A stretch of 64,000 nt of DNA from a candidate division WWE3 bacterium (lineage in GTDB: Bacteria; Patescibacteriota; WWE3; UBA101185; UBA10185). The translations under genes were made by a program, and so were the position numbers. Below are positions 33,022 to 62,631 of the stretch, in pieces; positions within the stretch are counted from its first letter, which is position 1, and each line of letters starts with the position of its first letter. The notes under the pieces are model-generated. The model ran no database searches. It was not told where the DNA came from and saw only the letters and a list, made by a program, of their open reading frames with translations. The stretch covers positions 863 through 64,862 of the forward strand of contig QZJF01000016.1 in the NCBI GenBank assembly GCA_003599255.1, in the 5' to 3' direction.

Positions 33022-33612
33022 TTAATTGCTATCTTCGCTTGGAGTACTTTGTTCGTCAGTGGCTTCGTCGTTTTCTTCTTCGCAGGGTTCTTCTTCTTTA
33101 ACTCTTTCAAAATCAATACTCCAATCTGTTTTATTTATTGCGACCATATCTACAGCAATGTGGGGACTTACCTCAACCGTACAGTTTTCTCTTGGGAAAG
33201 TTTCGTGTAAGGCTATTAAGAGGGATTTTTTATCCTTGTCCTCATAAACTTTCTTTATCTTGATTGCATGCGTTTCAGGATCTTCAACTTCTGTTGCTAC
33301 TCCGATGACATATTCTTTATTAAAATCCACAGTTTCCTTAAGAGTCACCAACCCGGCCGGATCAATGTAATTTAAAAAGTCGTTGAGTTCTTCTTCACTT
33401 TTAATAACTCTCCTCTGTTTTTCGTACTGTTTACCTTCTTCTGTGTAGATTATTGTGGGAAAGTTTTCCAGCCTTCTTATCTGTGTACCCTTGTTAAATT
33501 TAGGAAGTTTAATCTCGTCTGCCAGTAGGAAGTATCCTGCCCCAAAAATCAAAAGAACGATTATTACTAGTGGTAATAAAGATATATAAATGAATTGTTT
33601 TTTATCAGTCAT
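33022..33612 (-). CDS. hypothetical membrane-anchored acidic protein inserted between the two transketolase subunit genes
   Basis: N-terminal TM then a soluble acidic domain. ATGACTGA overlap with the tkt-N stop, and 8-nt gap to tkt-C. Confidence 0.45.
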   Translation of the reverse strand: MTDKKQFIYISLLPLVIIVLLIFGAGYFLLADEIKLPKFNKGTQIRRLENFPTIIYTEEGKQYEKQRRVIKSEEELNDFLNYIDPAGLVTLKETVDFNKEYVIGVATEVEDPETHAIKIKKVYEDKDKKSLLIALHETFPRENCTVEVSPHIAVDMVAINKTDWSIDFERVKEEEPCEEENDEATDEQSTPSEDSN

Positions 33613-34477
33613 AGTCGCAACTAATTTTTCCGTCGAGGGAGCGCAAATCCCTCAGGGCTTTCATGGCTTCCTTTTTATCGGGAACCTTGCCGTGCCACTC
33701 AACTTTATACTCCATAAATTCTACACCCTTTCCCGGTATAGTGTGCGCAATTATTGCCGTGGGACGCTGACTCACAGCCCTTGCCATGTTACAGGCATTG
33801 ATAATCTCTTCAATGTTGTGGCCGTCAATTTCAACCACAAACCAGTTAAAAGCTTCTAACTTATCTCTTAGACTTTCAAGAGGCATCATATCTTCGGTGT
33901 AGCCGCTAAGTTGTATGTTATTACGGTCAATTATCCATGTAATGTTGTTTAAGCCGCTGTTACCTCCAAACATTGCCGCTTCCCATACTTGTCCTTCGTT
34001 CAGCTCCCCGTCTCCGGTCATGACATATACTCTATAGTTCTTTTTATCTAGTTTTGCTGCTAATGCCATGCCAATAGCTTGTGAGATGCCCTGTCCAAGT
34101 GAGCCGCTTGTGTTCTCGACCCCCGGAAGGCTTCCGTAAGCAGGATGTCCCTGCAATCTCGAGTTAATTTTTCTTAAAGTCCAAAGTTCTTTTTTTGGGA
34201 AATATCCCCGTTCAGATAAACTAGCATACCATACGGGACAGATATGTCCATTCGAAAGAACGAATCTGTCTCTGTCTTCCCAATCCGGTTTTTTCGGATC
34301 AATGTTGAGTATGTGAAAATACAATGCAGCAAAGATATCGGCTGTGTCCAAGGAACCTGCACTGTGGCCTGAACCAGCCTCTAACAGCATTTGGATAACA
34401 GTTTTCCTCAAATCGTTTGCTTTAGTCTCTAAACTTGATATTACAGGATTTTGACAGTGAATATGTGTGTCGGGCAT
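33605..34477 (-). CDS. transketolase, N-terminal (TPP-binding) subunit
   Basis: TPP-binding GDG...NE motif region (MTGDGELNEGQVWE) and GHP/GH motifs. ORF track start is TTG 34495; the first ATG at 34477 (MPDTHIH...) is preferred. Confidence 0.85.
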   Translation of the reverse strand: MPDTHIHCQNPVISSLETKANDLRKTVIQMLLEAGSGHSAGSLDTADIFAALYFHILNIDPKKPDWEDRDRFVLSNGHICPVWYASLSERGYFPKKELWTLRKINSRLQGHPAYGSLPGVENTSGSLGQGISQAIGMALAAKLDKKNYRVYVMTGDGELNEGQVWEAAMFGGNSGLNNITWIIDRNNIQLSGYTEDMMPLESLRDKLEAFNWFVVEIDGHNIEEIINACNMARAVSQRPTAIIAHTIPGKGVEFMEYKVEWHGKVPDKKEAMKALRDLRSLDGKISCDYD

Positions 34478-34484
34478 TAAATTC

Positions 34485-34513
34485 AGTATATTCAATTAGT
34501 ATATTTTGTTCAA
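34485..34513 (-). promoter_or_regulatory. sigma70-type promoter TTGAAC-17-TATACT only 7 nt upstream of tkt-N ATG (leaderless or near-leaderless transcript)
   Basis: On the plus strand, gttcaa at 34508-34513 and agtata at 34485-34490. No SD between the -10 and the ATG. Confidence 0.4.
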
Positions 34514-34525
34514 GTAAAGTTTTTA

Positions 34526-34554
34526 TTGACGTAGCCTGTAGGATTAGGTATAAA
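34526..34554 (+). promoter_or_regulatory. sigma70-type promoter TTGACG-17-TATAAA at the start of a GC-rich ORF-poor island
   Basis: Read directly. It is followed ~40 nt later by GGAGG and a tiny ORF. Confidence 0.35.
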
Positions 34555-35029
34555 AAAAGATAGTTCCTACGAACAATAAAAAAAGAAAGAGGAGGTGCCT
34601 ATGGCGGTGGTTTTTACCATGTGTTTCGATCTTTGAATGACCCTGGTGCATCGACCGCCTACCGCTAAGCGGAAATTATAGGCAGGTCAGAATGGAGTTG
34701 AAAATGAGAGTTTCATCTACCTTGTGAGAGGAGGTGATCCATTCTCGGTCTCATCGCCGGTCGTTGGGACTGTATATCGTAAGACAAAAAACTCGTTCGC
34801 GAAAGGAGGTGAGACTACATATGGAAGCGGTAGTGTTCATGAGCTAACTCGTGGCGCCGTCGATCGTGATGAGAGAGTTTGGGTAAAAGCAGCGGATGTT
34901 GACTGCCCGAACGCCTTACGTTGCAGCGAGCGTTACTGAGGGGTTAAACACTGAAGCTCTATGAGGTTGGTTGATGGTAAGTCGATCGTAGGTTTCCTGG
35001 TGGACATCACTGCCCCTTCTAATGCCCCC

Positions 35030-35084
35030 GCCCCCGTGTCTGAAATGGATTAAATCCAAATCTATGGCACGGGGGCTCTTCTTT
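35030..35084 (+). terminator. rho-independent terminator: perfect 9-bp GC-rich stem (gcccccgtg / cacgggggc), 29-nt loop, then tcttcttt
   Basis: Read directly. Confidence 0.45.
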
Positions 35085-35086
35085 GC

Positions 35087-35114
35087 TTGACAACTATTTT
35101 CAATCTGATAGTAT
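35087..35114 (+). promoter_or_regulatory. sigma70-type promoter TTGACA-16-TAGTAT driving a ~450-nt ORF-less transcript
   Basis: Read directly. Lies immediately after the upstream terminator. Confidence 0.4.
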
Positions 35115-35119
35115 TTCAC

Positions 35120-35516
35120 GCACCCAGAGATTTTTAACAAGAAAATCTAGATAAAGGTCGCATTTTTGGCCTTCGCAAAACTGGCGATGTCGCGCCGTTG
35201 CCAGAATTCCAGATTCCGTTTTTACAGTAGAGGTCGGTCTGTCCGGATCGTCTGAGGGAATTTTGGAATTTTTTTAGCGCGCTCTGTTCTTCGCACTCTT
35301 TATGTGGAGATCGTGTGTAAAACAAACGTTTCTAGAACGTTTGCGGAATGGCGGCACCATTTCACTCACGAGCGGCCTACGCACGGAGAAATCGCAAAGC
35401 CTAGTTGCTTACCTCTTGTGACTAGTAACTTTGCCCAACCTTTTCACCCGGGCGAGAGATGAAACATAATGCGAGTTGGTTTCTACAACCCTCTCTCCCC
35501 GGTGATAAAACAAAAC
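35120..35516 (+). ncRNA. candidate non-coding RNA of unknown class (GC-rich, no ORF >26 codons, bounded by predicted promoter and terminator)
   Basis: Defined only by the flanking promoter (35087-35114) and terminator (35517-35570). No RNase P, tmRNA, SRP or riboswitch motifs were recognised by eye. Confidence 0.25.
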
Positions 35517-35570
35517 GGAGCCTTCTTGAGTATGCTTAACGCAAACTTGAAAAGGCTCCTTGTTTTTTTT
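35517..35570. terminator. bidirectional rho-independent terminator (stem ggagcctt/aaggctcc, then T8 on + strand and a U-rich tract on - strand)
   Basis: Read directly. Immediately downstream of the Rpe-LOG gene stop (35577). Confidence 0.55.
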
Positions 35571-35576
35571 AGAACT

Positions 35577-36806
35577 TTAATCTTTCTTTAGACTTTTTAG
35601 AAACTCAATAACTTCTTCGGGTGTTGTACAGATTTTTAACATATCCTCTTCGCTGTTTTTTAAGAGCATGTGTTTATGAATAACGTCCAAAAAGTCCTGC
35701 CAAAACGCCCCGAAAAGAATGATAGGTTTGTTATTTGGTTCATGTATCCATGAACTTATCCAGCTCATTCCAAACTCGCTGAGTGTTCCTATACTTCCTT
35801 TAAAAACGATATGAACCTGTGTAGTTTGCAGCATTACTTTAGTTCTGTCGAAGTAGTCCAATGTTATTACTTCGTCGTCAAAGTGGTTTTCCGGGTCAAC
35901 GCCTTCATAATGTCTTTTAGGTTTATTCGGGTGATAGGTGATTGCAAGTACCTTTCCGCCTCCTGCATGTGCTCCCTCTGTGGAAGCTCTCATTACCCCG
36001 GGTCCCCCGCCGTTTACTACTTCAAATCCTGCCTCTGCAACAGCTCTTGCTGTTTCATATGCTTCTTTGTAGGGTTGATCATTCTCAACCCAAGCCGCAC
36101 CTCCTAAGAAAGCAACTTTCGTTATTCTTTCCCGTTTTAAGGTAACAATAGTTTCTTCATTATTTATATCTTGTTTGTTTTGCATGCTTGTTAATTGTAA
36201 ATATTTTTTTCTCGGATTTGTACTACCAAATATTGCTGATCCTATTATCATATCATCTACGCCGGCATGTACTATTCCCGGAATGGTTTTCTCATTCACC
36301 CCGCCATCGACCTGAATTTGGACTTTAGGGTATGTGAGCTTGAATCTTTCGATTTTCTGCAGTACGCCCGGAATGAAATCTCTGCCCTGACCCCCGGGGA
36401 TTATGGTCATAAATTGGACAAAGTCCAGGTCTTTTACAAAATCCTGAATTATTTCAAAATCAGTGGTTGGTCCGAGAGACAGGCCAACTCTATAACCCAG
36501 TATTTTGGCTTTTTTTATGAATTCTTCGACTTCAGCTTTGCTCCCGAACCCTTCAATTTGGGAACATATTTTTACTGCATTTTTGATTTTTACAAGATAA
36601 TCAAGAGGATTTACTACAAGAAGATGCAGATCGTATTTGAGATTTGATTCCAAATTGTTTAGAGCTTCAATATCCTGAAAAGTGGAGCCCTCAAAGAGTT
36701 TACCGTCAACAAAATCTATCTGTACCATCTCCGAGAAGCTCTCCGCAATGCTAACTTTATCTTCAATATCCCTGAAGTTTTTTTCTAGAATGGCAGGAAT
36801 TATCAT
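35577..36806 (-). CDS. fusion protein: ribulose-phosphate 3-epimerase (N-terminal) plus LOG-family domain (TIGR00730, cytokinin riboside 5'-monophosphate phosphoribohydrolase-like, C-terminal)
   Basis: Rpe motif QVDGGVN...AGVDDMIIGSAIF. LOG motifs KVAFLGGAAW, NGGGPGVMRA and KGSIGTLSEF (GGGxGxM / PGGxGTxxE). Confidence 0.7.
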   Translation of the reverse strand: MIIPAILEKNFRDIEDKVSIAESFSEMVQIDFVDGKLFEGSTFQDIEALNNLESNLKYDLHLLVVNPLDYLVKIKNAVKICSQIEGFGSKAEVEEFIKKAKILGYRVGLSLGPTTDFEIIQDFVKDLDFVQFMTIIPGGQGRDFIPGVLQKIERFKLTYPKVQIQVDGGVNEKTIPGIVHAGVDDMIIGSAIFGSTNPRKKYLQLTSMQNKQDINNEETIVTLKRERITKVAFLGGAAWVENDQPYKEAYETARAVAEAGFEVVNGGGPGVMRASTEGAHAGGGKVLAITYHPNKPKRHYEGVDPENHFDDEVITLDYFDRTKVMLQTTQVHIVFKGSIGTLSEFGMSWISSWIHEPNNKPIILFGAFWQDFLDVIHKHMLLKNSEEDMLKICTTPEEVIEFLKSLKKD

Positions 36807-53338: not shown

Positions 53339-53554
53339 AGGTTGTTATAATGAACAGGAATAACTGTTGACTTAATGATATTAAGTTGCTATCTTCCAGT
53401 TTGCTAGCAAATATATGCTAGAATTATTCGTTGTTTTGTTAATTCCGAAGAGAACTTTGAAATATACATAGATAGAGCAATCCTTGAACAATTAGTTTGA
53501 GTACCTTAAGTAACTTTGAAATTTTCGAGGTTCAAGAGGTAAGAAGAATATTTT

Positions 53555-55024
<1,470 letters not shown>

Positions 55025-55253
55025 CTAGGGAGAAAACACGTATCTTTGATTGATGGAATCTTGTGTTTGCTATACGCAAACAAAGGCCATTGAAATAGAA
55101 GATACAACATATATCCGATAGCTCTGAGGATATGTGTTTTAGGCTGTTATGTGTTGCCTCACAACAGCTGAGCAAGTTCGACAGTAAGCTTAAACTGTCA
55201 AAAGAAATATTCTTCTTGCCTTTTGGATCTTGAAATTTATATTGTTTGAAACT

Positions 55254-55622
55254 TTAGGACCTGGCTCTATCTCTGTATTCGTAACCAAGCATAATTAATT
55301 TTTGCTTCTGTTCATCATTTAAGTCTTTCCCGATTTCCTGCAGGAAGTCCTGCAACATTACTCTAATTGATTCTTCCAGATGTGTTTGGATTTCATCCTC
55401 TTTCCAGTATTTTTTAATAACCTGAGTTAATTCTTCAATATTGGCTGTTGGTGTAAAAATTTCATCAGAGCCTATTTTAGATTTAGTATCAGCCCCAAGT
55501 CTTAGAACAGCATTCCTGAATATCTTATCTGCAACATCTGTGGAAACTTCGTCTGCATTGTCAATTCCAATGCCGTTTAATAAATCAAACAAAAATTGTT
55601 TTAAAAGATTTTGATCATTCAT
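55254..55622 (-). CDS. hypothetical protein (antisense to rRNA orientation, in 16S-23S interval)
   Basis: 122-aa ORF whose start overlaps the upstream ORF stop (ATGA coupling). Confidence 0.35.
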   Translation of the reverse strand: MNDQNLLKQFLFDLLNGIGIDNADEVSTDVADKIFRNAVLRLGADTKSKIGSDEIFTPTANIEELTQVIKKYWKEDEIQTHLEESIRVMLQDFLQEIGKDLNDEQKQKLIMLGYEYRDRARS

Positions 55623-56035
55623 TACGATTCCTTTTCCTGTTGATTTTCAAAATGTTCTGCTGCTCTGCCGAAATATCTCGACATTCCATAGCCTACTGCG
55701 GCGCCGATGCTGCCAGAGATCACTCCGGCAGGGTTCCCGGTCACGGCTCCAATTGGAACTGTACCGGCTGACATGCTTCCCGTAACCAAAGTGCCTTTGC
55801 TTAGCGATTTAGCCAATTTTGCTCTTTCTTCATCTGTTTCTGCCCCTTTCTCAATATACTTTATTGCCATCCCTAATGCCGCTTCATCCATTCTTTCCAG
55901 CCAACCGCCTATAGTTTGCTTAATAGTTTCCATGTTACTAAGTTGTTCGGGTTGGGATATATCCGCAACACTTTCTGTTGCGTCTTCCGCCGAAAAATTC
56001 TCGTGTTCTGCGTCGTCTTTTAAAAACTCACTCAC
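55622..56035 (-). CDS. hypothetical protein with C-terminal glycine-zipper hydrophobic segment
   Basis: Acidic N-terminal half, then GTLVTGSMSAGTVPIGAVTGNPAGVISGSIGAAVGYG (GxxxG repeats). GTG start; start uncertain. Confidence 0.35.
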   Translation of the reverse strand: MSEFLKDDAEHENFSAEDATESVADISQPEQLSNMETIKQTIGGWLERMDEAALGMAIKYIEKGAETDEERAKLAKSLSKGTLVTGSMSAGTVPIGAVTGNPAGVISGSIGAAVGYGMSRYFGRAAEHFENQQEKES

Positions 56036-56109
56036 CTAATTATTATCAAACGGGCGGTAACTGAAGTCAACCGTTGTCGTGACTTGATTTAATGGTGTAA
56101 AATGCACCT

Positions 56110-56529
56110 ATGACAATAACTAATGGTAAAGAAAAAGGAATTGCAGTCGGAGTTGTCAAGAATCCTGCAGGAAAAGTGTTGATAATGGATAGGATAAGAA
56201 AAGAAACCGGTGCTGACGGAAGCAAGCTTACCTGGGTCTTTCCAGGGGGAAAGCTTGACGGTTCCGAAACGTTTGAAGACGCAGTTGTCCGCGAAATTTT
56301 GCTGGAAACAGGGTTTAAGGTAAAAGTTAACAAACTTATCTCCGAAAGAGTTCATCCGCAATTTGAGGTCCCGATCAAATACTTTGCCTGCGAATTAGCC
56401 GAATTTCGGACAAGGCCCATACAGGAAATTCACGAAGTATCAACAATAAGATGGGTAGATGTCTCAGAGCTACGCGATTACTTTACTACGGATATTGATC
56501 CCAACGTCGCGAAGTTTTTAAAGATTTAG
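56110..56529 (+). CDS. NUDIX hydrolase
   Basis: Nudix box GGKLDGSETFEDAVVREILLETG (Gx5Ex7REUxEExGU). Confidence 0.75.
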   Translation: MTITNGKEKGIAVGVVKNPAGKVLIMDRIRKETGADGSKLTWVFPGGKLDGSETFEDAVVREILLETGFKVKVNKLISERVHPQFEVPIKYFACELAEFRTRPIQEIHEVSTIRWVDVSELRDYFTTDIDPNVAKFLKI

Positions 56530-56541
56530 CCTAAATGTTCT

Positions 56542-56564
56542 TGGTGGGCGATCGTGGACTCGAA
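56542..56564. repeat. 23-nt direct repeat identical to the 3' end (T-loop to CCA) of the adjacent tRNA-Ile(GAU); att-site-like duplication
   Basis: tggtgggcgatcgtggactcgaa occurs at 56542-56564 and again at 56613-56635 (the tRNA 3' end on the minus strand). The copies are 48 nt apart. Confidence 0.6.
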
Positions 56565-56612
56565 GACGCTCGCTTCGTTCGCTTGGTTCTCGTTGAGTAG
56601 ACCAAAAGTATA

Positions 56613-56689
56613 TGGTGGGCGATCGTGGACTCGAACCACGGACCTTTCCCTTATCAGAGGAATGCTCTAACCACCTGAGCTAATCGCCC
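56613..56689 (-). tRNA. tRNA-Ile (anticodon GAU), CCA encoded, antisense to the rRNA genes
   Basis: Cloverleaf: GGGCGAT acceptor, anticodon loop CTGATAA, T-loop TTCGAGT. Confidence 0.85.
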
Positions 56690-56765
56690 TAGAAACAGAT
56701 GAATTCTACCATGTGATTTCTCCGGAAGTCTACGCTAGATCAATATATTATGATAACATTTTGGT

Positions 56766-57821
56766 ATGTACAAGCTTTTTGCTTTACTTTTTTTCTCTCT
56801 ACCTCCACTGTTACTATTTGCCATTCTGCTTAGAGTGGACGACAATCTTGGTTTTGGTCTGACAATATATCTGTTTTTGGCAATTCTGCTCCTTTATGTG
56901 ATATTTTTTGTTCTGGTCATTTTTCGCAGTATGTTTCAGATGAAAAAGGAACTCGCCGTAAGCCGTTTCATGAAGCTTCTGTCTGATGAGTTTCACATTG
57001 TATCTAAAAAATACTCTTTTTTTGTCAATTCCTTGTTGTTTTCCTGGTTGGTTGTTTTGGTTTTTATCATGTTTTACACAGTGAGTTTTATGTTTGCGCA
57101 ATATGTGGGAAAGCATTATGGAGATGAGATTAGAAATTTCCTGAAACAGCCTACGGTTAGCACATCGGACTTGTTGAATACAACTGAGGAGATGAAAGAT
57201 GAGTTGCGGGACCTCAAAACAAAGTTTTACGAACAAAATCAGTTAGATTTTTTTTCCAATAATTCTAGTACTTACTCTGAGGAGGAGGCACCTTACATTG
57301 TATTCTTAGATTTCAGCTTCCGCGAGGATTCCTCACCGGGGTTCAAGAGTTATTTTCTGTACTCTGTAAACATCTGTGCCGACGATGATCCGGAAAGTAT
57401 TGGGGTAGAGAGATGTTTGGATATCAGAGGTCCCATGGATTCTGAACTAAAGTTTAAATTCGCAAAGGAAGAAACTGTGTCGAATATTAATTTACGGGAG
57501 ATTTATGCCGCGGATTTTAACCAGCCATTCTTTGTACTCGAAATTGAAACAAATCTTAGGGATGCAGCGGTGCTGGTATATCCTGTCGATACTGATGATC
57601 TAAGCTACTCATACATTCCAAATACCAGTATCAACTCCGAGGCGAAGTTCGCAACATATGTGCAGGTCAATCAAATACAGAACGGTATTGTTTTTCTCGA
57701 ACGTATCAGGGACTTAGTAAACGGAGTAGTTGATGATACCGGAAAAGATCTGCATGTCACTGTTTTTAAAGAGAATGGTATTGTGAACTACCAGTATTCT
57801 CCGGTTAACGTCCAGCCCTAA
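56766..57821 (+). CDS. hypothetical membrane protein
   Basis: 351 aa. Four N-terminal TM segments followed by a soluble domain. Confidence 0.45.
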   Translation: MYKLFALLFFSLPPLLLFAILLRVDDNLGFGLTIYLFLAILLLYVIFFVLVIFRSMFQMKKELAVSRFMKLLSDEFHIVSKKYSFFVNSLLFSWLVVLVFIMFYTVSFMFAQYVGKHYGDEIRNFLKQPTVSTSDLLNTTEEMKDELRDLKTKFYEQNQLDFFSNNSSTYSEEEAPYIVFLDFSFREDSSPGFKSYFLYSVNICADDDPESIGVERCLDIRGPMDSELKFKFAKEETVSNINLREIYAADFNQPFFVLEIETNLRDAAVLVYPVDTDDLSYSYIPNTSINSEAKFATYVQVNQIQNGIVFLERIRDLVNGVVDDTGKDLHVTVFKENGIVNYQYSPVNVQP

Positions 57822-57830
57822 TTTTAATTT

Positions 57831-58829
57831 ATGAAACAATACCCCAAAGTAGTAGTTATAGGCGGAGGAACAGGAACATATGCTGTTCTTTCGGGTTTAA
57901 AGAAATATCCGGTCCATTTATCTGCAATTGTTACCATGATGGATTCCGGAGGTTCGACCGGAAGATTAAGAGACCAATTAGGTGTGCTGCCTCCAGGAGA
58001 TTTGAGACAGTCATTGGTAGCGCTTTCAGAATCTACTGAAATATGGAGAAACCTGTTCGCATATAGGTTTGATAACGGTGATCTGGAGGGGCACAATTTT
58101 GGAAACATATTTTTGTCGTCACTTGAGATGATAACTGGTTCAAATGAACGCGCTATTCATTACGCTGCAAGACTATTGAAGACAAAAGGAAAGGTAATTC
58201 CCGTTACGTTAACAAAATCCACTCTATGTGCAAAATATTCTGACGGAACAATCCTTGAAGGGGAAAAGCTAATAGATTACGCGCCGGCACCCAGAGCGCG
58301 TATAAATTATGTTTATCTTTCCCCTAGAGCCGTAATAAATCCTAACGCCAGAAAAGCCATAGAAACAGCCGATTTCTTGATATTCGGACCGGGAGACCTG
58401 TATACAAGCATTATTCCTAATTTAATAGTGGACGACATGGATGATGCAATTAGAAAAAGTAAAGCGAATAAAATATTTTGTATAAATTTAATGACTAAGT
58501 TGGGCCAGACTGATGGATTTAAGGCCTCCGATTTTGTCACTGAGCTATATAAGTACCTGGGCGGGGCAATGGTAGATTCTCTGGTTGTAAACAATAAAGA
58601 ACCGGATAAGGAAGTGGTAGATTGGTACGCACGATCGGGGGACGCATTCCTGGTTGAAGACGATCTTGATTCAATTGGCGGGGACATAGAGGTTTTTAGG
58701 GGAGATTTGCTTAGTGATACGCGCTATGAACAGTCTTTGTCTGATAGGATCCAAAGGAGCTTAATCCGACACGATCCGGACAAACTGGCAAAAGTGCTAT
58801 CCGAAGTTATCCAGAAAATCTTAGGTTGA
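57831..58829 (+). CDS. YvcK/CofD-like (UPF0052, gluconeogenesis factor family) protein
   Basis: N-terminal VVVIGGGTGTYAVLSGLK and family-typical length. Confidence 0.7.
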   Translation: MKQYPKVVVIGGGTGTYAVLSGLKKYPVHLSAIVTMMDSGGSTGRLRDQLGVLPPGDLRQSLVALSESTEIWRNLFAYRFDNGDLEGHNFGNIFLSSLEMITGSNERAIHYAARLLKTKGKVIPVTLTKSTLCAKYSDGTILEGEKLIDYAPAPRARINYVYLSPRAVINPNARKAIETADFLIFGPGDLYTSIIPNLIVDDMDDAIRKSKANKIFCINLMTKLGQTDGFKASDFVTELYKYLGGAMVDSLVVNNKEPDKEVVDWYARSGDAFLVEDDLDSIGGDIEVFRGDLLSDTRYEQSLSDRIQRSLIRHDPDKLAKVLSEVIQKILG

Positions 58830-59088
58830 CATCACTTTATACCGGTGCTAGAGTATCAGGTACGGAATGGGTAGTTCAACTTCCATATGGACTTTCTTTG
58901 CGTTTTTATGCGCAGGAATCTTAAAAAGATTCTTCAGGAAGCTCTGAATATCTATGTTTTAAACAATTGAATGTGAATAGTTTTACTTGTTGATTAAGTG
59001 TGCTACATTAGTGAGACCTGCAGTATGTTAGGCCAATGAGTGCATTCTCGGTCCTGCCTACGCGGGCTTGTACAGTCCCGTAAGTTTA

Positions 59089-59164
59089 CGGGCCTGTAGC
59101 TTAGTTGGTAGAGCGCCGCATTTGCATTGCGGAGGTCACGGGTTCGAATCCCGTCGGGTCCACC
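59089..59164 (+). tRNA. tRNA-Ala (anticodon UGC), CCA encoded
   Basis: G3·U70 identity pair. Anticodon loop TTTGCAT. T-loop GGTTCGAATCC. Confidence 0.9.
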
Positions 59165-59254
59165 AGATTAGTAAGTGCCCTTTGAAAACTGAATAAAAGT
59201 ATCTGATTTCGAAAGAAGTCAGGATACGAAAACTCTAAATTTTATGACAACAAT

Positions 59255-62385
<3,131 letters not shown>

Positions 62386-62514
62386 TATGAAGTCATAGAG
62401 AAGAGTTTTTGTATTCGGCTTTAGCCGCTTTACGCGCTTGCGCGAAAGGGGCCGGAGGCCACTTTTATTCAGTTTTTAGAGGGTACGAACATTAAAAATA
62501 AGTTTGTGTTCAGC

Positions 62515-62631
<117 letters not shown>

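Follow-up and report, generated by a model that had tools for sequence, protein, structure and literature searches.

Two described systems come closest to the locus reported here. In Bacillus subtilis, the Shine-Dalgarno (SD) sequence of hbs forms 10 Watson-Crick and 2 G-U pairs and is called "exceptionally strong", and the ribosomes bound to it stop RNase J1 (PMC5737220). A STAB-SD, which is sited away from the start codon in the 5' untranslated region of cry3Aa, stabilises the cry3Aa messenger RNA (mRNA) of Bacillus (PMC12970973). The bound 30S subunits or ribosomes thereby stop decay in the 5'-to-3' direction (PMC5737220, PMC12970973). In this study, we analysed a non-coding gap at positions 34496-35576 of a 64-kb stretch of DNA, hereafter the window, from a bacterium of candidate division WWE3 (Patescibacteria, or candidate phyla radiation, CPR; contig QZJF01000016.1). 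The gap contains no open reading frame (ORF) and lies between the transketolase gene tktN and a fusion of rpe with LOG, both on the minus strand. On the evidence of its sequence, it most likely holds one or two plus-strand transcription units that encode no protein and run opposite to these flanking pentose-phosphate genes. The predicted units are termed Unit A and Unit B, and Unit A bears three elements (S1, S2 and S3) complementary to the 3' tail of the host 16S ribosomal RNA (rRNA).

As in the hbs and STAB-SD systems, Unit A combines a long, structured (predicted) transcript with SD-type sequence that is complementary to the 16S 3' end over an unusual length. S2, like a STAB-SD, is not the initiation site of a protein gene, and S1 and S3 precede ORFs of just 11 and 8 codons. 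Unlike those systems, Unit A has three elements, one of which pairs over 15 nucleotides (nt), longer than the hbs element; its downstream RNA carries no protein-coding gene, and the host, a CPR bacterium, makes weak use of SDs. Dual-function small RNAs (sRNAs) with small ORFs include SR1/SR1P, RNAIII/hld and SgrS/SgrT. Unit A is comparable to them as a predicted structured RNA, a few hundred nt long, running from promoter to terminator and including short ORFs with their own SD, but these ORFs have only 8 and 11 codons, no pairing target other than the 16S tail stands out, and there is no family-level homology. By analogy, the locus may resemble SD-stabilised or dual-function RNAs in its possible mode of action.

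Other comparisons are more distant. The leader-peptide attenuators, such as the erm and cat leaders and the leaders of amino-acid operons, recall the short hydrophobic ORFs of Unit A with their strong SDs, which lie within hairpins upstream of a terminator-like hairpin; however, no regulated gene follows on the same strand, where Unit B and then the convergent rpe 3' end (antisense) are found. Like the CsrB/RsmZ sponges, Unit A repeats SD-like purine motifs, is non-coding and evolves fast in primary sequence, but its repeat is the full AGGAGGUG rather than GGA in hairpin loops. GGA is not enriched (10 copies against 10.5 +/- 2.8 expected in Unit A, 7 against 5.7 in Unit B), and the idea of a CsrA sponge was rejected. 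The large RNAs OLE, GOLLD, ROOL and HEARO share the length class of 450-530 nt, the GC enrichment relative to the genome and the strong predicted structure, whereas the gap has no covariance-model match at E<=10 and is conserved in one sister species at most. The genomes of CPR/Patescibacteria are about 1 Mb in size and have hardly any spare DNA, and to our knowledge next to nothing is known about their regulatory RNAs. Literature searches on non-coding or small RNAs of CPR/Patescibacteria returned nothing on regulatory RNAs of a similar kind, and no paper was found joining "anti-Shine-Dalgarno" and Patescibacteria.

Promoters, terminators and folding of the gap

A first-pass annotation, which was made from the letters of the window, had described an ORF-less island between the transketolase and rpe genes with two promoter-to-terminator units. 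The island was borne out. The gap is the sole long non-rRNA non-coding stretch of the window, and the further gaps seen on a crude ORF map correspond to rRNA and transfer RNA (tRNA) regions or contain real ORFs of 81-283 amino acids (aa). Its GC contrast with the background, given as 50% vs ~38%, had been overstated: the gap measured 46% and the window 41.2%, with 50% reached in the core (34650-35100) alone. The longest ATG-initiated ORF within the gap has 39 codons (35302-35421) instead of the 26 counted before, and ORFs with GTG or TTG starts reach at most 74 aa. The predicted transcription signals and units are as follows:

34526-34554, plus strand: Unit A promoter, TTGACG-17-TATAAA, read directly and divergent from tkt
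34561-35088, plus strand: predicted Unit A RNA of ~530 nt, G 28% and C 21%, structured, without period-3 signal
35030-35088, plus strand: hairpin GCCCCCGUG...CACGGGGGC (35030-35076), GC-clamped, then a U-rich tract; putative Unit A terminator or processing hairpin
35087-35114, plus strand: Unit B promoter, TTGACA-16-TAGTAT, with an upstream TG extension; top match of the promoter scan (10/12)
35121-35570, plus strand: predicted Unit B RNA, ~450 nt long, with ~11 stem-loops in a chain
35444-35505, plus strand: long hairpin UCACCCGGGCGAGAGA / CCUCUCUCCCCGGUGA, directly before the terminator
35507-35569, both strands: bidirectional intrinsic terminator, an inverted repeat with 29-nt arms, common to Unit B (plus) and rpe-LOG (minus) and kept in the sister-lineage locus L010
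34485-34513, minus strand: tkt promoter, TTGAAC-17-TATACT, whose -10 box ends 7 nt before the ATG at 34477; same site in L010

Both plus-strand promoter motifs were confirmed exactly where the annotation had placed them. The Unit A promoter had been skipped by the scan tool because the tool demands T at position 6 of the -10 box. In 2 kb, 7 promoter-like matches were counted where 3.3 +/- 1.8 were expected, a weak excess when taken alone. The strong-stem terminator claimed for Unit A held in part, in that the hairpin and the U-rich tract are present but the terminator scan gave no call, because the hairpin loop exceeds the limit of the scan; the bidirectional terminator claimed after Unit B was recovered as the inverted repeat listed above. 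The tkt mRNA looks leaderless, given the 7-nt distance between the TATACT box and the ATG (minus strand, 34475-34513), and the gap is therefore not a tkt 5' untranslated region (UTR). The arrangement CAT-N7-AGTATA was found in 9/9 WWE3 loci whose extracted sequence starts at the tkt start codon (the window, L005, L006, L010, L014, L016-L018 and L043; L numbers denote related loci).

Folding of the gap is strand-specific. The plus strand of Unit A (34561-35092) gave a minimum free energy of -188.2 kcal/mol (z -3.66 vs shuffles) and that of Unit B (35121-35576) -153.2 kcal/mol (z -4.72), with z values of -0.93 and -2.53 for the respective reverse strands. The L010 counterparts of Unit A and Unit B reached z values of -3.07 and -7.27. 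Pairing between Unit A and Unit B was also calculated; the full-length duplex energy was no better than that of shuffles, and this comparison is uninformative.

A coding signal is missing. Codon periodicity was absent from Unit A (z 1.5) and Unit B (z -0.7) in comparison with four neighbouring genes (3.5-8.3), stop-free translations of the gap had no Pfam match, and 11 stop-free pieces of at least 40 aa, joined into one query, matched none of 5.8 billion protein clusters at E<=10. A protein-coding gene or recent pseudogene was rejected on the grounds that no ORF, protein similarity or period-3 signal exists. A degraded protein gene, the outcome that the first-pass annotation had set against its own proposal, was not found by Pfam, protein clusters or periodicity, and its suggestion of a decayed horizontally acquired cassette was not supported, with no protein or DNA homologue found and no period-3 remnant. 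In addition, blastn of the gap against phage and plasmid collections gave no match.

The gap belongs to no described RNA family. Rfam reported only rRNA and tRNA across the whole window at the gathering score, no family in the gap at E<=10 (Rfam 15; top score 21 bits vs a gathering score of 49) and no matches in 13 related loci, and ARAGORN detected no tRNA or transfer-messenger RNA (tmRNA) in the gap. The covariance-model scan of the gap, which the annotation had proposed, thus matched no known family and agreed with its reading by eye that tmRNA, RNase P, signal recognition particle RNA and common riboswitches are absent. Repeat arrays of the CRISPR, TIGR or type III antitoxin kind were looked for, and no tandem or interspaced repeats were seen; apart from three copies of the 12-nt SD motif, the gap has only trivial repeats, 8-13 nt long. 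The idea of a guide array or tandem-repeat element was rejected accordingly.

Complementarity to the 16S rRNA tail and micro-ORFs

The host 16S gene ends in ...GGAUCACCUCCUUUCU. Every 18-mer on both strands of the window was duplexed with this tail. Three complements of 10-15 nt each were detected in the 5' third of the Unit A RNA, and two of them precede micro-ORFs. All five features had been overlooked in the first-pass annotation:

34587-34597, plus strand: S1, extended SD AAGAGGAGGUG, ~27 nt from the predicted 5' end; duplex of -17.2 kcal/mol, rank nine overall
34601-34636, plus strand: micro-ORF 1, MAVVFTMCFDL*, 11 codons; ATG 5 nt after S1
34726-34746, plus strand: S2, GAGAGGAGGUGAUCC plus conserved UUCU (element 34726-40); 15 contiguous pairs, -29.8 kcal/mol
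34801-34812, plus strand: S3, extended SD GAAAGGAGGUGA; duplex of -23.7 kcal/mol, second strongest in the window
34821-34847, plus strand: micro-ORF 3, MEAVVFMS*, 8 codons; start 11 nt after S3

Complementarity of this kind is extreme for the window. With the 16S antisense itself excepted, S2 and S3 are the top two tail-binding sites on both strands, and the S2 duplex nearly equals that of the perfect 16S antisense (-30.3 kcal/mol). Compared with the whole window, the Unit A and Unit B RNAs have their longest perfect complementarity at the 16S 3' end (13 and 12 nt, including 16S 55010-55022); the remaining matches are at chance level. Three of the seven copies of AGGAGGTG in 64 kb fall inside 220 nt of Unit A (P ~0.003 by shuffling), and AGGAGG occurs 3 times vs 0.2 expected by shuffling. 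No AUG, GUG or UUG start is present 3-12 nt downstream of S2, where AUU alone is found six nt past the element. The conserved UUCU 3' of S2 could pair with the AGGA of S2, which would leave GGUGAUC looped. A fragment of an inverted 16S gene was rejected as an origin, as the similarity ends after GGAGGTGATCCA.

The genes of the window make little use of such sequences. Among the 58 ORFs of at least 120 aa, SD complementarity was at most 6 nt within 20 nt of any candidate start, alternative starts being allowed, and at most 4 nt in 47/58; a promoter placed for a leaderless mRNA was found in 9/58. The spacers of L010 and L015 also contain, on the same strand, the top tail-binding site of the entire 11-kb locus, and the spacers of other WWE3 relatives have no comparable sites. 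The L010 orthologue of micro-ORF 3 reads MEAVFSMVTI*. Codons 1 and 7 specify Met and codon 4 specifies Val in all three micro-ORFs, which also share a hydrophobic core and differ at third codon positions.

A hairpin of the Unit B counterpart in L010 (4104-4121, minus strand), GCCUU-UCCUCCUU-AAGGC, shows a mimic of the anti-SD tail (CCUCCUU) in its loop. It lies near a 12-bp stem in which GGAGGAUGGCAG pairs with CUGCCAUCCUCC. Unit B of the window has no CCUCC equivalent of this mimic.

The tkt-rpe junction in related genomes

Syntenic loci were fetched via the flanking proteins. The host was assigned from these proteins, which are named WWE3 in public sources, and from the related loci, all of which belong to WWE3, Saccharibacteria or Patescibacteria metagenome-assembled genomes. 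In the relatives, the rpe-tkt junction is always a non-coding or ORF-poor spacer, ranging from 0.3 kb (L005, L006) to 2.4 kb (L043). The spacers are mutually non-homologous at the level of DNA and six-frame translation, except for the pairs L005/L006 and window/L010; when the gaps of 10 loci were compared by tblastn and blastn, L005-L006 was the only match, plus the terminator. A promoter of the form TTGAC[AGT]-16/17-TAnnn[TA] nevertheless faces away from tkt in 9 WWE3 loci, 33-155 nt from the tkt start, and the Unit A promoter is kept in type and position in L010 and 8 further WWE3 loci. In the same orientation, most of the relatives' spacers are more stably folded than shuffled sequences, with a z of ~-9 for unit 2b of L016 (16 shuffles only), and none has a period-3 signal.

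L010 represents the lineage of WWE3 RIFOXYD1_FULL_39_9, and its tktN has 85% aa identity with that of the window. Its gap of 1192 nt is overall unalignable with the gap of the window, but five islands are shared. These are (i) the tkt promoter; (ii) GTGAGGAGGTGATCnnTTCT, with S2 kept in L010 as GAGGAGGTGATCnnTTCT; (iii) AGGAGGTGA, followed by ATGGAAGCsGTA 8 nt (window) or 9 nt (L010) downstream; (iv) the hairpin 5' arm CCCGCCCCCrTGT, in which one pair is changed from G-C to A-U on both sides; and (v) the rpe terminator. The Unit A promoter of L010 is TTGACA-17-TATAAA at the same place. Further homologues were not recovered by blastn and nhmmer against the related loci. A motif scan with GGAGGTG-N5-14-ATGGARGCNGTNNTNTNNATG gave 0 viral matches and 4 matches in metagenomes, of which 2 were the sister lineage again and 2 were due to chance; GAGGAGGTGATCNNTTCT was rejected as a search motif, being unspecific (20 viral matches).

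Several observations concern the variability of this junction. Three contigs of strains within the species are identical and therefore uninformative on strain variation. Independent assemblies of the sister lineage break at one same point in the gap, just past the Unit A hairpin, with one N-run and one contig end, and the contig of another relative begins 943 nt upstream of tkt (L013 4294-4372; the end of L040 at 9120; the contig of P0020). The pattern of breaks suggests strain-level variability or hard-to-assemble sequence at the locus. In L005 (7247-7548) and L006 (7250-7547), read on the minus strand, an element of ~280 nt with 71% identity occupies the same rpe-tkt spot. It carries a TTGACT-17-TAGyGT promoter, has no Rfam match and, in L005, adds a 17-bp hairpin (GGGAGGGGAAUUCAUAG/CUAUGAAUUCCUCCUCCC); judging from these features, it looks like a separate candidate sRNA. 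The divergent promoters of L014, L017 and L043 are near-identical (GGrGTTGACAAGA-N5-GTTATAGG) in otherwise unalignable spacers. In L014 and L017 this promoter is 33 nt from the tkt start, and its -35 box would therefore overlap that of the tkt promoter on the opposite strand.

The neighbouring genes were also inspected. The order on the minus strand is rpiB, rpe-LOG fusion, gap, tktN, a 196-aa ORF, tktC, pfkB and fba, and the two genes that border the gap are:

33605-34495, minus strand: tktN, with the start at 34477 according to other gene callers
35577-36806, minus strand: rpe-LOG fusion, adjoining the gap

In the latter, rpe is fused to a LOG/SLOG (TIGR00730-type) domain in a single 409-aa ORF; the rpe and LOG parts are separate or overlapping ORFs in L005, L006, L015 and L004. 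The ORF between tktN and tktC (33022-33612, minus strand) has 176-199 aa, is conserved in every WWE3 locus examined and has no Pfam or NCBIfam match. In the rRNA region of the window (53553-62630), the 16S (53553-55024) and 23S (59257-62387) genes are 4.2 kb apart, with several ORFs and two opposite-strand tRNAs between them. The 23S gene contains insertions (3131 nt vs a 2925-nt model), and the 16S alignment shows deleted helices.

Possible mode of action, alternative explanations and implications

The explanation that we favour, tentatively and at somewhat less than even chances, is that the gap encodes structured RNAs specific to the lineage, which carry micro-ORFs and STAB-SD-like elements for the docking of ribosomes. 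The precedent of the SD-type 5' stabilisers of Gram-positive bacteria leads us to infer that S1-S3 would dock 30S subunits or ribosomes on the Unit A RNA. Docking might shield the downstream structured body from 5' decay, gate the folding of that body, or both, and the micro-ORFs would be a component of the docking device or products in their own right. The body of Unit A would terminate in the GC-clamped hairpin and U-rich tract, and Unit B, with its ~11 stem-loops, would end at the terminator shared with rpe.

Several results weigh against this explanation. A single homologous lineage (L010) was found, and most of the gap sequence evolves at the speed of neutral DNA. The consensus fold of the window and L010 is weak (-8.35 and -0.4 kcal/mol), and no shared secondary structure was recovered from the two homologous sequences available. 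The three SD elements are mostly base-paired in the fold of the isolated RNA (unpaired probability 0.16-0.26). RNase J, which is needed by the STAB-SD mechanism, was not found among the window ORFs checked. The Unit A hairpin, missed by the terminator scan, is atypical as a terminator. Promoter B is absent from the sister species L010, so that the gap may give one transcript instead of two, and Unit B as a separate transcript is uncertain.

The micro-ORFs could be read in another way, with Unit A as an mRNA for peptides of 8-11 residues, M(E)AVVF(T)M..., that are functional or regulate as nascent chains, and with the extended SDs as very strong ribosome-binding sites. Met1, Val4, Met7 and the hydrophobic core are retained in all three copies, of which two are in the window and one is in L010, while third codon positions vary (GCG/GCC, GTG/GTA, TTT/TTC) between unalignable flanks; SD and start are 5 and 11-12 nt apart, which are usable spacings, and the hairpin around the start codon in L010 is not kept in the window. 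The codon-level argument is weak because only three copies exist. Moreover, S2 (34726-40), the strongest element, is followed by no AUG, GUG or UUG start, the peptides are much shorter than known functional small proteins of bacteria, no downstream gene is present for a leader peptide to regulate, and this reading gives no account of ~900 nt of structured RNA. We consider a micro-peptide mRNA unlikely on balance. Alternatively, Unit A may pair in trans with the free 16S 3' tail, thereby docking, sequestering or marking 30S subunits. It would then serve to titrate or sense ribosomes in a cell with mostly SD-poor or leaderless mRNAs. The 15-bp (34726-40) and 12-bp (34801-12) matches are the top two tail sites of the window, one of them has no ORF, and the window shows weak SD use and promoters of the leaderless type. 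Such an RNA belongs to no known class, however, and a literature search on sequestration of the anti-SD or the 30S subunit by non-coding RNAs found nothing similar; folding predictions leave its elements mostly paired, a very high copy number would be needed with three sites per RNA, and other WWE3 relatives are without comparable sites. A titrating function is rather improbable.

The gap could also be a non-functional variable spacer, in which the rpe-tkt junction is a hot spot of recombination or insertion with fast-evolving, GC-richer filler, and the promoters, hairpins and SDs are by-products. The content of the gap is non-homologous between species with 73-85% identical flanking proteins, its length varies from 0.3 to 2.4 kb, orphan ORFs are present in the gap of some relatives (L004, L043), and sister-lineage assemblies break within it. 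Set against this, at least 1 kb with the same architecture is maintained at this place in two species despite a streamlined CPR genome, the divergent promoter is kept in 9 loci, specific islands of 18-30 nt have survived in a background that is saturated, the folding favours one strand and departs far from randomness, and the clustering of AGGAGGTG is improbable in shuffled sequence. A mere spacer has a low probability, though one to be reckoned with. The first-pass annotation had preferred one or two expressed non-coding RNAs to spacer, and this preference is upheld by the missing coding signal, the strand-asymmetric folding and the conserved promoter, motifs and hairpin arm, except that a separate Unit B transcript is uncertain. 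Finally, a regulatory leader on the minus strand, in the form of a long tkt-operon 5' UTR or riboswitch, or a degraded protein gene, would suit a gap inside an otherwise single pentose-phosphate operon. The rpe terminator and the conserved tkt promoter 7 nt from the start leave no room for it, shuffled sequences fold as well as the minus strand of Unit A, and neither a riboswitch match nor protein similarity or a period-3 signal was found. The tkt leader was rejected because a conserved promoter lies at the start codon of tkt, and this group of explanations is very improbable.

Taken as a lineage-specific structured RNA locus, the gap is a genuine, unclassified candidate non-coding locus whose present form is confined to one small WWE3 lineage. 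If it were merely a variable spacer, it would mark a recombination or assembly hot spot relevant to the curation of WWE3 genomes. If it is real, it represents a 1-kb non-coding locus with a fixed position, a conserved promoter and species-specific structured content, and a concrete target for metatranscriptomics. More speculatively, WWE3 genomes may keep a conserved, tkt-adjacent promoter that drives fast-evolving, highly structured, lineage-specific RNAs. The strongest ribosome-tail complements of the region sit in a genome that hardly uses Shine-Dalgarno sequences, and, if confirmed, they would provide the first candidate RNA-based link to the translation machinery in CPR/Patescibacteria.

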